From sequence record NC_025447.1: a DNA stretch of 64,000 bases, one strand, 5' to 3'. The notes beneath the pieces are model-generated. The model was not told where the DNA came from. It did not search any database and saw only the letters and a program-made list of their open reading frames with translations. The position numbers were made by a program, and so were the translations under genes. The first letter of the stretch is position 1. Each line of letters opens with the position of its first letter. The stretch is from Escherichia phage 121Q. Shown here piece by piece: positions 48,787 through 52,404 of this stretch.

Positions 48787-49557
48787 ATGACCAGAGAAGC
48801 ACGCAGCATTCAAATTCAGAAAAACTTCAACTCCATGATGGTTGCTCTTGAGTGTTTGCTCGATGATAGCAGTACTGTAAAAAGTATGGTTGTCAGTGGT
48901 GCTCCTGGTGTTGGCAAGACTTACACCCTGTCTAAACGCCTCCAGAAAGCTCATGACGCAGCAGAATGGAACGTAGCTACCATCAGTGGTAAAATGACTA
49001 CTCTGGCTCTGTACGAAGTTCTGTACAAGAATCGTCATAGCACCAACGTATTAGTACTGGACGATATGGACAGTATTTTTGATTCTGAAGACGGTATGAA
49101 CCTGCTCAAAGCAGTACTGGATAGTGGTAAGCGTACCGTGTCTTATATGACTAGCTCTAAGTACTTGAGCACTAACGGAATTCCTAATAGCTTTGATTTT
49201 AATGGTCGCATCGTATTCATTACTAACAAAGATTTAGCGTTAGATGCTAAAGCTAAAACTAAAATGTCTGCTCATTATGCTGCTCTTATGTCTCGTTCTG
49301 TGTACGTGGATTTACAGATTCAGACTAAAAGTGATATCATGATTCATATTGAGAACGTGATGAATCAGACTAACATTTTAGAATCTAAGGGTATTAACCG
49401 TAATGGTAGTAAAGCAATTCTGAACTGGATGTTGAAGCACGAAGATTCTCTTCGTTCACCTTCACTGCGTATGCCACTGTTGATTTCGGCAGTATATAAC
49501 AACAACCCATACGATTGGGAAGAACAGTGCGAAAACTTGTTCCTTGAGAAAATTTAA
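48787..49557 (+). CDS. P-loop NTPase (AAA-like ATPase)
   Basis: Walker A GAPGVGKT and Walker B-like VLVLDDMD read from the product. Confidence 0.6.
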   Translation: MTREARSIQIQKNFNSMMVALECLLDDSSTVKSMVVSGAPGVGKTYTLSKRLQKAHDAAEWNVATISGKMTTLALYEVLYKNRHSTNVLVLDDMDSIFDSEDGMNLLKAVLDSGKRTVSYMTSSKYLSTNGIPNSFDFNGRIVFITNKDLALDAKAKTKMSAHYAALMSRSVYVDLQIQTKSDIMIHIENVMNQTNILESKGINRNGSKAILNWMLKHEDSLRSPSLRMPLLISAVYNNNPYDWEEQCENLFLEKI

Positions 49558-49564
49558 TTCAATA

Positions 49565-49596
49565 TTGACAGTACTAACAACGTGTAGTACTATAAC
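49565..49596 (+). promoter_or_regulatory. sigma70-like promoter (TTGACA ... TATAAC)
   Basis: Spacer contains AGTACT twice; upstream of membrane-paralog array. Confidence 0.4.
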
Positions 49597-49622
49597 AAAA
49601 GTTTAATCACTGGAGACACTCA

Positions 49623-49964
49623 ATGCGTGAGTTTTTTGAATCTAATATAATGCTTGGTATCACACTGATATACATGTTTGTATTCTTGTTTTATCATTCA
49701 ATTGTAATTAGTCTTTGGTATTTTAAAAGGAAAGTTGTTTTTAAATTGTATTCATATAATAATGTATTCTTGGTTGTATATAGCATTATACAAGGTGGAT
49801 TTATTTTATTTGGTGTGATGACATATGTGATTTACATGTTACAAATTGATAACACACCACACATTACACAATATGTTGTGTTTTCAGGACTAATCGTCTG
49901 GTTATTGGTGTGTACTATGTACTTTATTATTAAAGCTCGTGATAACTTTAAATGGGGATTCTAA
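49623..49964 (+). CDS. small polytopic membrane protein, tandem paralog 1
   Basis: ORF track; related to next copy (…FFESNIMLGITLIYMFVF… vs …FFKSDTMISITLIYLFGF…). Confidence 0.45.
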   Translation: MREFFESNIMLGITLIYMFVFLFYHSIVISLWYFKRKVVFKLYSYNNVFLVVYSIIQGGFILFGVMTYVIYMLQIDNTPHITQYVVFSGLIVWLLVCTMYFIIKARDNFKWGF

Positions 49965-50302
49965 TGTTAGAATTTTTTAAATCAGATACAATGATTAGTA
50001 TTACTTTGATTTATCTTTTTGGTTTTTTCTTTTATCATGCACTAGTTGTAGTACTATGGTATTTTAAAAAGAAAATTGTTTTTAAACTGTATCCAGTGAG
50101 GAATTCATCACTAGTTCTTTACACACTTGTTCAAGGTTTGTTTGCAATTGTTGGTCTTATGGCACACTTAATTTATTGTGCTAATCCTCACTTGAACTCA
50201 ATCTCACAATATATTGTATTCTTTGGATTGTTCATTTGGTTAGTTGCATACTTAATCCATCTCATTATTCATGGTAGAGATAAAATTCGCGGAGACTTCT
50301 AA
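49955..50302 (+). CDS. small polytopic membrane protein, tandem paralog 2
   Basis: ATG at 49955; ends HGRDKIRGDF. Confidence 0.45.
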   Translation, partial: GILMLEFFKSDTMISITLIYLFGFFFYHALVVVLWYFKKKIVFKLYPVRNSSLVLYTLVQGLFAIVGLMAHLIYCANPHLNSISQYIVFFGLFIWLVAYLIHLIIHGRDKIRGDF

Positions 50303-50649
50303 TGTTTGAAGCTTATCTTGAGTTTTTAAGGAGTAGTCCAGTTGCACATTCACTTGCAGGGATTATTCTAACAACTTATGTATCATTTTGGGTAGTTATG
50401 TTTCTAGGATGGTATTTTAAACGACAATTCTATAAACGTAATGGTGAAGATTTTATGAATTCTGTCATTAATCAATCGTTGTTTGCATCAACATTGATTG
50501 CATGTATTGTAGCAACACTCACAGGAAAGGTACTACCAGCTTTTTCCGCAGTTTACGGCACACTTGGGATGATATGTTTAACTTTTATATTGACCATTAA
50601 AATTTGTTGTGTTATGATTGAACTTCGAAATAAGATACCGGAGGAATGA
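50302..50649 (+). CDS. small polytopic membrane protein, tandem paralog 3
   Basis: ORF track; ends ELRNKIPEE. Confidence 0.45.
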   Translation: MFEAYLEFLRSSPVAHSLAGIILTTYVSFWVVMFLGWYFKRQFYKRNGEDFMNSVINQSLFASTLIACIVATLTGKVLPAFSAVYGTLGMICLTFILTIKICCVMIELRNKIPEE

Positions 50650-50984
50650 TGGAGTACTTTATTGATTTACTGCCGTGGTATATGAAAGTTAGTACCATGT
50701 ACTATATTATTAGTGCTGGATTCTACTTTCTGATGTGGTTCTTTAAACGACCAATTTCAGTATTCATCGCTGATAACATGCTGCAATTAAAATTACACGC
50801 ATGGTTTGGTATGGCGATGATTATGCCTATTATTCACTACTCAATGATTAGTAGAGGTTTCCGTTCTAATGGTGAACCAATTGTATTAGTATTCTATTGG
50901 GGTTCAACTATTGCATATGTAAGTTTGTTGTTGTTCCCAGTCGTTCATAAGTTACGTGCTAAAGTTCCTGATGCGAGGTACTAA
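50646..50984 (+). CDS. small polytopic membrane protein, tandem paralog 4
   Basis: ORF track; ATGA overlaps. Confidence 0.45.
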   Translation: MMEYFIDLLPWYMKVSTMYYIISAGFYFLMWFFKRPISVFIADNMLQLKLHAWFGMAMIMPIIHYSMISRGFRSNGEPIVLVFYWGSTIAYVSLLLFPVVHKLRAKVPDARY

Positions 50985-51300
50985 TGGATATAGTAACATT
51001 GATTTACACGTTGTATTCATTCTATTTCATTATGTGTTGGGTTGGATTTTTATTTGTACTCAAGATGTTTGATTATGTTGAAAAACAGATAAAAGAATTT
51101 TGTATTCCTTTTATCGGTTCAACCATTATTAGTGTTTCTTGTGTGTATTTTTTTGGTTTTTGATCCACCAGATAACACTGCAATGATTGACTTGATGTTA
51201 CTACCAACAACTGTTACTTTTTTATGTAGTCTGATGCCGCCGATTAGCCGTGGACTAACAGAATTTAGACGCAATCAAAAGCGTAAACGAGGGATGTAAT
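50984..51300 (+). pseudogene. membrane-protein paralog apparently disrupted by a frameshift
   Basis: 59-codon N-terminal ORF (MDIVTLIYTLYSF...) stops at about 51163; a second frame continues to ...RRNQKRKRGM, matching the C-terminus of the next paralog. Confidence 0.3.
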
Positions 51301-51667
51301 GGAAATTGCTCTTATTATCTTAACTGCTATGCTGTTTATTAGTACTGTGGTTATAATTGGTAAATTCTTTTGTGTATCATTTTTAGAAACGGTATACGAT
51401 GAAATTGCTGATGATTATGAATTCCAAGCCGGATTTTTCATTACGTATTGGCTTAGTTTATTTTGTCTAGTCATTGCTTGGATTTTACATATCTTTAAAT
51501 GGGGTATGGTAGACGGTGATCCTATTATGGCAATTATTGTTCTAGTGTTTGGTATCCTTGGTGGTGCAGTGCATAATCTAATGGTTATCTGGCAAACTGT
51601 TCAATATGTTTTGGTTCCCTATTTCGAAAAGATGCACAGTACAATTAAAAAACGTAAACGAGGTTAG
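51299..51667 (+). CDS. small polytopic membrane protein, tandem paralog 6
   Basis: ORF track; ends TIKKRKRG. Confidence 0.45.
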   Translation: MEIALIILTAMLFISTVVIIGKFFCVSFLETVYDEIADDYEFQAGFFITYWLSLFCLVIAWILHIFKWGMVDGDPIMAIIVLVFGILGGAVHNLMVIWQTVQYVLVPYFEKMHSTIKKRKRG

Positions 51668-51668
51668 T

Positions 51669-52031
51669 ATGAACGGGATAGAATTATCTTTCGTTGGTCA
51701 ATTACTAGTAATGGCGTATACATTTATCTTCTCACTGAATGCATTCGTGTGCATTGGGAAGTACTTCCATAAGCGACCATTATCAAATATATATGATGTA
51801 ATCCAAAAGAGATATAGTCCAGCATATACTGTGTTGGGTACAGTATTCAATTTTGGTTTTATTGTATTAATAATTGGACTGTTCACATCCTCTTTGAATA
51901 CAATAACCTTCGGTCTTATGATATGTTCATTGGTATTAGCCGTAATTATATGTTGTTTAGTACTGCACCTTGTGGTACTATTGTATATAAAGATCTCTGA
52001 AATCCACCAACGTTTGGGTATGAGGAAATAA
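51669..52031 (+). CDS. small polytopic membrane protein, tandem paralog 7
   Basis: ATG at 51669; track ORF 51606-52031. Confidence 0.4.
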   Translation: MNGIELSFVGQLLVMAYTFIFSLNAFVCIGKYFHKRPLSNIYDVIQKRYSPAYTVLGTVFNFGFIVLIIGLFTSSLNTITFGLMICSLVLAVIICCLVLHLVVLLYIKISEIHQRLGMRK

Positions 52032-52032
52032 T

Positions 52033-52404
52033 ATGAGTTACCGTGAGATATTTTCCATTATTTCAATTATTATGTTCAGTACTGGAACACTGGTATGGTT
52101 ATTATACTTCTTCTGTATTAATCCAGTGTATAATATGTTATGTAATATTAAATCAAGTGCCGGATATATCACTTTTATGGTCTTTATGGGATATTATTGT
52201 CTAAGCATTTTAGGTGTTGTTTTGGTTGTTATATTTGATGTGGGACCAAATAGTGATGGTATGGAAATACATGAATTAATAACCATGTTTGGATGTATGA
52301 TACCAACAGCACTACTGTTTGTAGCTACTGGTAGTGGATTGATAAAATTATATAATTATTTAAAATCCATTCATAATTCCATTCATAATAAGCGTATGTC
52401 ATAA
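52033..52404 (+). CDS. small polytopic membrane protein, tandem paralog 8
   Basis: ORF track. Confidence 0.45.
   Translation: MSYREIFSIISIIMFSTGTLVWLLYFFCINPVYNMLCNIKSSAGYITFMVFMGYYCLSILGVVLVVIFDVGPNSDGMEIHELITMFGCMIPTALLFVATGSGLIKLYNYLKSIHNSIHNKRMS

Follow-up and report, generated by a model that had tools for sequence, protein, structure and literature searches.

Why a jumbo phage should carry a run of small membrane-protein genes directly behind an ATPase gene is the question raised by positions 48787–52404 of a 64,000-nucleotide stretch of the Escherichia phage 121Q genome (NC_025447.1), a stretch referred to below as the window. The plus strand of this region encodes one ATPase of 256 amino acids (aa) followed by eight consecutive small open reading frames (ORFs; M1–M8), as stated in an original prediction made from the nucleotide sequence and confirmed here by ORF calls and by the annotation of the related phage G17. 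The array corresponds to 121Q genes 223–232. Overall, the prediction proved largely accurate. It also proposed that small membrane proteins had been tandemly amplified and diversified at this site, a proposal that is borne out both by paralogy at the profile level and by variation in copy number between related phages.

The eight genes and their products

The start codons of M1–M8 were chosen to agree with those annotated in G17, which also have the better ribosome-binding sites. All genes lie on the plus strand: M1 (49623–49964), M2 (49964–50302), M3 (50302–50649) and M4 (50649–50984) encode predicted membrane proteins of 113, 112, 115 and 111 aa, respectively, M1 being a three-pass protein; M5 (50984–51299) is disrupted in the present sequence by an extra T and encodes 104 aa when intact, as in relatives; M6 (51299–51667), M7 (51669–52031) and M8 (52033–52404) encode proteins of 122, 120 and 123 aa. 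The range of 110–140 aa given originally was thus not accurate, the actual range being 104–123 aa. A 141-aa version of M7, starting at an upstream ATG (51606 instead of 51669), and a 116-aa version of M2 were rejected, as the positions of the Shine-Dalgarno sequences and the annotation of relatives fit the shorter forms.

The spacing between successive membrane genes (start versus stop) is −1 to +1 nt, and each start is preceded by a Shine-Dalgarno-like match (GGAG/GAGG, or a weaker GGA). Orthologous arrays were present in every RaK2-like genome inspected, and the orthologs have been kept across genera in which the ATPases are merely 45–70% identical. When compared to phage vB_Ec-M-J, the ratio of nonsynonymous to synonymous substitution rates (dN/dS) was 0.09–0.40 for the membrane genes and 0.04 for the ATPase gene, which suggests that the membrane proteins are under purifying selection yet evolve several-fold faster than the ATPase. 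Together, the spacing, the Shine-Dalgarno sites, the orthologs and the dN/dS values indicate that M1–M8 are real, translationally coupled genes. The contrary explanation, that there is no functional system here and that the ORFs are either spurious or mere neutral remnants (ORFans) in a hyperplastic region, with no present role, could point to the absence of M1 from some relatives (the close relatives vB_Ec-M-J and phAPEC6), to the frameshift that M5 has suffered here without obvious consequence, and to the high plasticity of the region, which is bordered by shuffling-prone cassettes (see below). We consider it extremely improbable, given a dN/dS well under 1 for every member, the retention of orthologs across those divergent genera, the conservation of Shine-Dalgarno sites and start/stop overlaps, and residues that are invariant over 68 sequences. 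The reverse-strand ORFs of the region are short and unannotated in relatives, and a scan of 40000–54000 against Rfam returned no RNA family. The strongly negative AT skew at 50–52 kb can be attributed to the T-rich codons for Phe, Leu and Ile, and adds to the case for real genes.

The tight packing of the genes also leaves a mark on the protein sequences. Counted over the array genes of the window and of loci L002, L004, L005, L007–L009, L014 and L016, a GGAG/GAGG core serving the next gene was found inside the last eight codons (stop included) of 24 out of 50 internal genes and of none of the 12 terminal genes (Fisher p = 0.002). With the Shine-Dalgarno core lying within the end of the upstream gene, part of the extreme C-terminal sequence (P-E, R-G, A-R, M-R) is dual-coding; CCG-GAG, for example, reads as P-E and CGA-GG as R-G.

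Pairwise BLAST detected similarity only between M1 and M2 (47% identity), and PHROGs places the eight proteins in six or seven families. Paralogy was therefore assessed with family alignments, comprising the array proteins of 14 phage genomes as well as database hits, which were compared using hhalign against a null of target alignments with columns shuffled inside 8-column blocks, a procedure that keeps architecture and local composition (60 replicates per pair). This null was relied on over other types of decoy: reversed-sequence decoys were too lenient, with iterative searches growing to include nearly every array protein without any decoy, and block-shuffled sequence decoys were unusable as each still matched its own parent. 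Within M1–M4, the comparisons gave hhalign probabilities of 98% (M1/M2 versus M3, z 10), 96% (M1/M2 versus M4, z 13) and 97% (M3 versus M4, z 16), and within M6–M8 of 96% (M6 versus M7, z 10) and 95% (M6 versus M8, z 12); for these within-subfamily pairs, 0/60 null replicates attained the real score. Comparisons across the two groups gave 65% (M3 versus M6, z 5.9), 25% (M1/M2 versus M6, z 5.8) and 26% (M1/M2 versus M8, z 5.6), and an independent profile comparison of the group alignments returned a probability of 40%. M5 versus M6 yielded 38% (z 3.8). The profiles thus provide solid support for a subfamily A (M1–M4) and a subfamily B (M6–M8), make a common origin of the two plausible, and suggest M5 to be a divergent outlier weakly linked to M6. 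The original description of eight paralogs holds within M1–M4 and within M6–M8, whereas the links between subfamilies A and B are suggestive only and M5 is barely linked to either.

The proteins themselves are already catalogued: M1–M6 and M8 match PHROG families 19454, 19046, 27396, 33258, 26405 and 27618 with E-values of 1e-52 to 1e-70 (M1, phrog_19454; M3, phrog_19046; M4, phrog_27396; M5, phrog_33258; M6, phrog_26405; M8, phrog_27618), while M7 has a marginal match to phrog_26405 only (E 0.046). All of these families are listed as being of unknown function. Where PHROGs has six unrelated families, the profile comparison yields two subfamilies and possibly one superfamily. The repeats among the eight genes at the DNA level are short and weak, which argues against recent duplication, and dS between M1 and M2 is 1.75. 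Lineage-specific duplications are seen in M1/M2 here and in ORF309/310 of RaK2.

Subfamily A proteins carry a motif L-W-[YF]-F-[KR]-[RK] at the cytoplasmic end of the first transmembrane (TM) segment and a C-terminal motif L-R-x-K-[IL]-P-[DE], represented by GWYFKR and LRNKIPEE in M3 and by MWFFKR and LRAKVPDARY in M4. In 68 non-redundant subfamily A sequences, only W37, F39 and R109 (M3 numbering) were invariant and the other columns had high entropy. Conservation in this subfamily is, according to the alignment and the predicted topology, restricted to two short cytoplasm-facing motifs, with highly variable membrane and periplasmic parts. In subfamily B, TM1 is followed by G-K-[FY]-F-[CH]-V and then Y-D (GKFFCV and YD in M6), and the basic tail reads [LIM]-H-x-x-[IL]-x-x-[KR][KR] with an invariant His. 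The tail motif proposed originally for most copies, R-x-(N/K)-(I/L/M)-P-(E/N)-(K/R), is closely matched by M3 and roughly by M4; M1 and M2 show degenerate forms of it, and M5–M8, which have a basic tail of another kind, lack it. Conservation as simple as three invariant residues in A and one invariant His in B makes the family experimentally tractable.

A Kyte-Doolittle scan revealed three hydrophobic segments in seven of the eight array proteins; in M4, the first segment is aromatic-rich and falls under the threshold, and it aligns with TM1 of the paralogs. Three hydrophobic peaks were likewise found in 143 out of 172 collected array proteins. In these 143, the mean number of Lys and Arg residues per protein was high in the C-terminal tail (4.18) and loop 1 (3.29) and low in loop 2 (0.53) and the N-terminus (0.44), a bias which under the positive-inside rule predicts the N-terminus outside, loop 1 inside, loop 2 outside and the C-terminus inside (N-out/C-in). 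The TMHMM calls made by the depositors of phage Muenster give three TM segments and N-out/C-in for six of its eight homologs. In an AlphaFold2 model of M3 (predicted local distance difference test, pLDDT, 74), three long helices are seen, with an additional short one in loop 1. The array proteins thus share an architecture of approximately 105–125 aa, three TM segments, a basic loop 1 and a basic C-terminal tail. The earlier description of the ORFs as hydrophobic, polytopic membrane proteins accordingly stands for the number of segments and for the charge bias, with discordant TMHMM calls for the orthologs of M5 and M8.

M5 is interrupted by a single extra T (T7 instead of T6) at approximately 51148, the sole indel found when 3.8 kb are compared with phages UB and G17. 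All 19 phage records matching the segment have the shorter T-run and an intact 104-aa M5 (19/19). The frameshifted copy noticed originally at 50984–51300 is thus real in the present sequence and unique among these records, so that it is either a mutation specific to this isolate or a sequencing error in the homopolymer. Speculatively, transcriptional slippage on the T7 run could restore some M5 product. The idea that phage UB contains many frameshifts was rejected, as its sequence is collinear with that of G17 and only its annotation is sparse.

Related phages, a second cluster and promoter cassettes

The segment 48722–52500 is 95–98% identical to the Asteriusvirus Escherichia jumbo phages UB, G17, Sharanji, SP27 and PBECO4 (all ~350 kb), and its sequence identifies the source of the window as a RaK2-like (Asteriusvirus) E. 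coli jumbo phage. An ATPase gene followed by an array was found in Asteriusvirus, Alcyoneusvirus, Mimasvirus and Eneladusvirus as well as in unclassified Erwinia, Salmonella and Klebsiella jumbo phages. The comparison of related genomes called for by the original prediction confirmed that copy number varies, from 4 to about 10 members immediately downstream of the ATPase gene: 4 in Salmonella phage Munch and Klebsiella phage fENko-Kae01, 5 in Serratia phage BF and Yersinia phage fHe-Yen9-04, 6–7 in EJP2, 7 in XbC2 and Kaldavass and, with M1 missing, in vB_Ec-M-J and phAPEC6, 8 in the present window, G17, RaK2, KP13-7 and Muenster, and about 10 in Erwinia phage Hallingskeid.

Searches with the subfamily A profile returned 45 clusters at 90% identity among 5.8 billion proteins, and 35 representatives at 50% identity (56–128 aa) among 1.84 billion proteins; the 29 of these representatives that were retrieved contain both motifs or close variants. 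The subfamily B search gave 14 clusters at 90% identity. All matches located on long contigs or having a source name belong to jumbo phages of ~250–370 kb, and the matches indicate that the membrane family is confined to RaK2-like jumbo phages. In some genera, unrelated soluble ORFs are interleaved in the arrays. One of these is a conserved 42-aa soluble ORF (MKPEQWIIDDMR...LLxWYVKVLNSKE) inside the arrays of Alcyoneusvirus, of Erwinia, Salmonella and Klebsiella jumbo phages and of EJP2 (L003 7076–7204, L004 7457–7585, L006 1317–1445, L007 2000–2128, L013 1846–1974, L014 1207–1335). Neither this ORF nor an interleaved 104-aa soluble ORF of other genera was found when looked for in the present window.

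The family extends beyond the array. Approximately 7 kb upstream, outside the region covered by the original prediction, three further plus-strand genes encode subfamily A members, namely N1 (41829–42167, 112 aa), N2 (42177–42518, 113 aa) and N3 (42520–42864, 114 aa), which are matched by the family hidden Markov model (HMM) at E 5e-5, 5e-6 and 1e-12, respectively, and are kept in relatives. Their tails, RSNIPEK in N1, RDNLPER in N2 and RKNMPNR in N3, fit the originally proposed tail motif exactly. A six-frame scan of the complete 352-kb genome of ECO103 4-12-1 found 11 members, all in these two clusters, which lie ~6 kb apart there, and one extra marginal match (E 0.008) that is probably noise. 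The window contains other small, strongly hydrophobic plus-strand ORFs, including two adjacent ones of 140 aa each (22831–23253 and 23250–23675), a run of three (32699–32941, 32999–33325 and 33775–34152) and those at 44367–44618, 45891–46085 and 2751–2948. The family HMMs did not match any of them, and they may be further, unrelated clusters of membrane proteins.

Both clusters are headed by the same kind of element. Directly upstream of the ATPase gene, at 48722–48758 (+), lies a composite cassette with a stem, GGGTTGAC/GTCAGCCC, at 48726–48745, followed by a T-run, and with a sigma-70-type promoter consisting of a −35 element TTGACT (48729–48734), 18 nt and a TG-extended −10 element TATAAT (48753–48758), which scored 11/12 in a promoter scan. 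G17 has its hairpin in this region annotated as a terminator. The 33-nt element GGGTTGACTTCGGTCAGCCCTTTTTGCTATAAT, in which a hairpin between an A-run and a T-run is found together with TTGACT and the TG-extended TATAAT, occurs five times in the window (repeat family D1; zero expected), at 34695–34727, 40781–40813, 45276–45308, 46558–46590 and 48726–48758, with a partial copy near 45855. The copy at 40781–40813 (+) heads a unit comprising a kinase-like gene (40809–41483, +), a 93-aa ORF and N1–N3; the kinase label comes from the depositors of related genomes, who describe the counterpart as a T7 gp0.7-like protein kinase. A second promoter-like site, identified by its consensus match, is found between the ATPase gene and M1 at 49565–49596 (+; TTGACA, 17 nt, TACTAT, with an AGTACTA/TAGTACT hairpin in the spacer). 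The array is closed at 52410–52433 by a perfect 10-bp hairpin (ATCCAGTACT tgat AGTACTGGAT), terminator-like and lacking a plus-strand T-tract, whose homologous site in G17 is annotated as a terminator.

Composite terminator/early-promoter cassettes, termed PeSLs, have been described in T4-like phages, where they mark hyperplastic regions and mediate the shuffling of modules (PMC2839356, PMC4122927). The window cassettes resemble them in joining a stem-loop/terminator to a near-consensus sigma-70 promoter repeated before variable gene modules, in having the stem of A-run, GGG, loop, CCC and T-run reported for the nt-1 type, and in that the similarity to relatives sets in at exactly 48722, the genes 5′ of this position differing from those of G17. 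By their sequence, as multicopy stem-loop and early-promoter elements at the border of a variable module, they qualify as putative PeSLs, with the difference that they occur in a RaK2-like jumbo phage, not in Straboviridae. Two ORFs occupy the slot directly 5′ of the ATPase gene (46900–48710): a Cys-rich one of 487 aa, in which two CapR homology domains are recognized (Pfam PF21817, E 2.6e-23), and one of 108 aa whose N-terminus resembles a signal peptide. In the same slot, G17 and vB_Ec-M-J have other genes (a RaK2_00499-like or an HNH-endonuclease ORF), and the slot therefore resembles a swapped mobile module.

In the RaK2-like phage CBB, RpoD-like promoters cluster in a short-ORF region which the authors deemed to hold early, host-takeover genes (PMC5259590). 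With the hairpin/sigma-70 cassettes heading both clusters and with the PeSL and CBB precedents, early expression of the array is likely by analogy. The array is, to judge from its sequence context, part of a conserved transcription unit in a plastic region of short genes with host-type promoters.

Class I holins of the lambda S105 type are small proteins with three TM segments, an N-out/C-in topology and a charged C-terminal tail. The array proteins share this description (~100–120 aa, three TM segments, N-out/C-in, charged and basic C-terminal tail), and could in principle be holin- or antiholin-like regulators of lysis timing that permeabilize the membrane or tune its permeabilization. They differ in matching no Pfam holin family, in being headed by host-type early promoter cassettes instead of late promoters, in having no adjoining endolysin, and in a number of copies, 11, that is unexpected for a holin. 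The endolysin of the RaK2-like phage group is 121Q gp532 (PMC5259590), which places the array (genes 223–232) away from it and outside the lysis cassette. A role in lysis timing thus appears highly unlikely.

Beyond the closing hairpin, strand polarity flips, and the convergent minus-strand genes at 53089–55431 and further on encode Gly/Ser/Thr-rich repeat proteins, labelled in related records as RCC1-like "regulator of chromosome condensation" or "DNA condensation" proteins. Elsewhere in the window, six tRNA genes are found at 8682–13969 (Gly-TCC, Ser-TGA, Ser-ACT, Met-CAT, Asn-GTT and Thr-TGT), of which the Ser anticodon ACT is unusual.

The neighboring AAA+ ATPase

The gene preceding the array (48787–49557, +) encodes a 256-aa AAA+ ATPase with the Walker A sequence GAPGVGKT and the Walker B sequence VLVLDD. 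It matches phrog_1250 with an E-value of 8.5e-104 and is ~40% identical to nrdC.10 of T4-like phages, a relationship already noted in the RaK2 annotation; in all, 1307 phage records match it by tblastn. G38, G41, G43, K44, D92, D93, N147, R170 and R228 are invariant across 41 homologs. An AlphaFold2 model (pLDDT 93) displays a canonical AAA+ core and lid and has 173 PDB matches at E ≤ 0.001, led by AAA+ proteins. The best of these (RuvB, Bcs1, NSF/Sec18, Orc/Cdc6, Hda and sigma-54 activators; TM-score ~0.5) are scattered over the AAA+ superfamily, so that neither a clade nor a function can be assigned from them. The labels "thioredoxin", "clamp loader" and "FleQ" given to this protein in related records are unsupported and should be corrected as mis-annotations of an NrdC.10-type AAA+ protein.

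T4 NrdC.10, a conserved AAA+ protein of T4-like phages of unknown function (phrog_1250), has the Walker A, Walker B and sensor residues in common with the window ATPase. It differs in possessing an N-terminal domain of ~75 residues and in not being followed by a membrane array, while the window protein is the reverse: residues 2–253 align to positions 77–326 of the 327 in the profile, and positions 1–76 are unmatched. The T4-type proteins have 322 aa, compared to 254–264 aa throughout the RaK2 clade, which thus appears to hold a truncated subgroup of the NrdC.10 family.

Several observations would fit a single machine, in which the cytoplasmic motifs of the membrane proteins dock the ATPase, for instance so that a DNA or protein complex could be anchored or remodeled. 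The ATPase gene lies directly upstream of the array in 14/14 RaK2-like genomes inspected, covering several genera, and the short form without the T4 NrdC.10 N-terminal domain is distinctive of this clade. Furthermore, the E. coli Asteriusvirus phages CRJP21, UE-S1, WPEC3, ph0011 and ECO103 4-12-1 have an ATPase allele that is just 58% identical, next to an array that is ~95% identical; in these genomes DNA similarity restarts near 49340, within the ATPase gene, suggesting recombination inside the gene and that the C-terminal lid region travels with the array. The same exchange implies that the ATPase core is replaced independently of the array. In addition, in T4-like phages and Schizotequatrovirus the homologs among the 1307 records stand among nucleotide-metabolism and replication genes with no hydrophobic neighbors, and three distant metagenomic relatives of the ATPase also lack an array. 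N1–N3 form a cluster 7 kb away from the ATPase gene, a 65-nt gap with a separate promoter-like site divides that gene from M1, and the generic AAA+ fold matches include none pointing to a membrane-linked clade. An ATPase-coupled membrane complex is thus unlikely in our view, and the functional link implied in the original prediction did not find support. As the ATPase occurs without the array, N1–N3 lie apart, the array has its own promoter-like site and the two are exchanged separately, their adjacency is best described as lineage synteny, with functional coupling possible but unsupported.

Possible roles of the membrane proteins

The functions suggested originally, superinfection exclusion or channel modulation, are plausible. 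Our preferred reading, offered tentatively and based on the sequence features above, is that the array may constitute a battery of exclusion or gate-keeping inner-membrane proteins, acting to exclude superinfecting phages at the DNA-entry step in the manner of T4 Imm. The proteins would be made early by the host RNA polymerase and inserted in the inner membrane, where they would act as a diversified set: the conserved cytoplasmic motifs would give all members the same handle, and different membrane targets would be addressed through the variable faces in the membrane and periplasm. The ATPase would be a syntenic neighbor and not an obligatory partner. Imm and Sp of phage T4 are made early, and like the array proteins they are small phage proteins of the inner membrane; a block of incoming DNA would be the analogous activity. 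T4 Imm has two TM segments and is encoded by a single-copy gene, in contrast to the three TM segments of the array proteins and their 11 paralogs in two clusters. The absence of M1 from some relatives, the broken M5 and the lineage-specific duplications represent a plasticity typical of accessory or conflict genes.

A number of points weigh against exclusion. Searches of Pfam, NCBIfam, PADLOC and PDB sequences, using both single sequences and the subfamily A profile, gave sub-threshold noise only for the membrane proteins and revealed no resemblance to Imm, Sp or other exclusion proteins; no membrane protein had a Pfam match at E ≤ 1, and the PHROG families offer no Imm-type assignment. A Foldseek search of the M3 model against BFVD and PDB returned its own family only, so that neither sequence nor fold resembles a known exclusion protein, holin or channel. 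A gene labelled "superinfection immunity protein" in phage Hallingskeid sits elsewhere in that genome and is unmatched by the family HMMs. The known exclusion systems consist, to our knowledge, of one or two genes and not of 11 paralogs. The overall purifying selection (dN/dS < 0.4) does not give the global signature of an arms race. Given the weak link between subfamilies A and B and the weak membership of M5, the "one family" may instead be two or three families sharing an architecture. In phage Muenster, TMHMM reverses the orientation of the M8 ortholog and of an extra last array gene and assigns just two TM segments to the M5 ortholog, making the topology of these proteins less certain. 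The early timing, finally, is deduced from promoter consensus and from what is described in other phages. In the literature searched, we found neither an account of these membrane proteins nor a functional study of NrdC.10, nor a transcriptome for the RaK2-like phage group.

The structural evidence for exclusion (probable early expression, variable membrane faces, conserved cytoplasmic motifs) applies equally to modulation of host membrane proteins or defenses, which we regard as possible and nearly as likely. Each paralog would then inhibit or re-route a different host inner-membrane protein to the benefit of the infecting phage, the candidate targets being transporters, proteases, the division or envelope-stress machinery, and membrane-acting abortive-infection effectors. 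In favor of such a role, N1–N3 share their cassette-headed unit with the gene that depositors liken to T7 gp0.7, a kinase inhibiting host transcription, and the CBB authors view the corresponding region as one of host-takeover genes (PMC5259590). On the other hand, the modulators would have no known target, no member matches a PADLOC model or a family annotated as anti-defense, and sequence data cannot separate modulation from exclusion. The remaining probability falls to roles outside those considered here.

A more far-reaching reading, which we think rather improbable, would see the 11 paralogs as a repertoire of inner-membrane gatekeepers that share a cytoplasmic handle, formed by the motif at the end of TM1 and the tail motif, and that each present a different membrane or periplasmic face; the handle might engage the adjacent AAA+ ATPase or a host factor.

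The array is present in every published relative, where it has gone unremarked as "hypothetical" or "membrane" proteins. The present analysis adds a reduction of six PHROG families to two subfamilies, a second cluster together with a census across a whole genome, a description of how the motifs are conserved, and the decoupling of array and ATPase. Few phage genes are as poorly understood as those for small early membrane proteins, and the examples studied so far (Imm, Sp, HK97 gp15, holins and antiholins) govern entry, exclusion and lysis. If the gatekeeper repertoire were true, a single early operon would shield the slow infection of a jumbo phage from many superinfecting phages or from membrane-acting host defense effectors, and the virus would carry, in this family, a membrane immunity array that has been amplified in tandem and diversified. 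Should the copies not differ in target, they would amount to one more ORFan family; should they differ, they would illustrate the means by which a jumbo phage protects the cell envelope during its long infection cycle.

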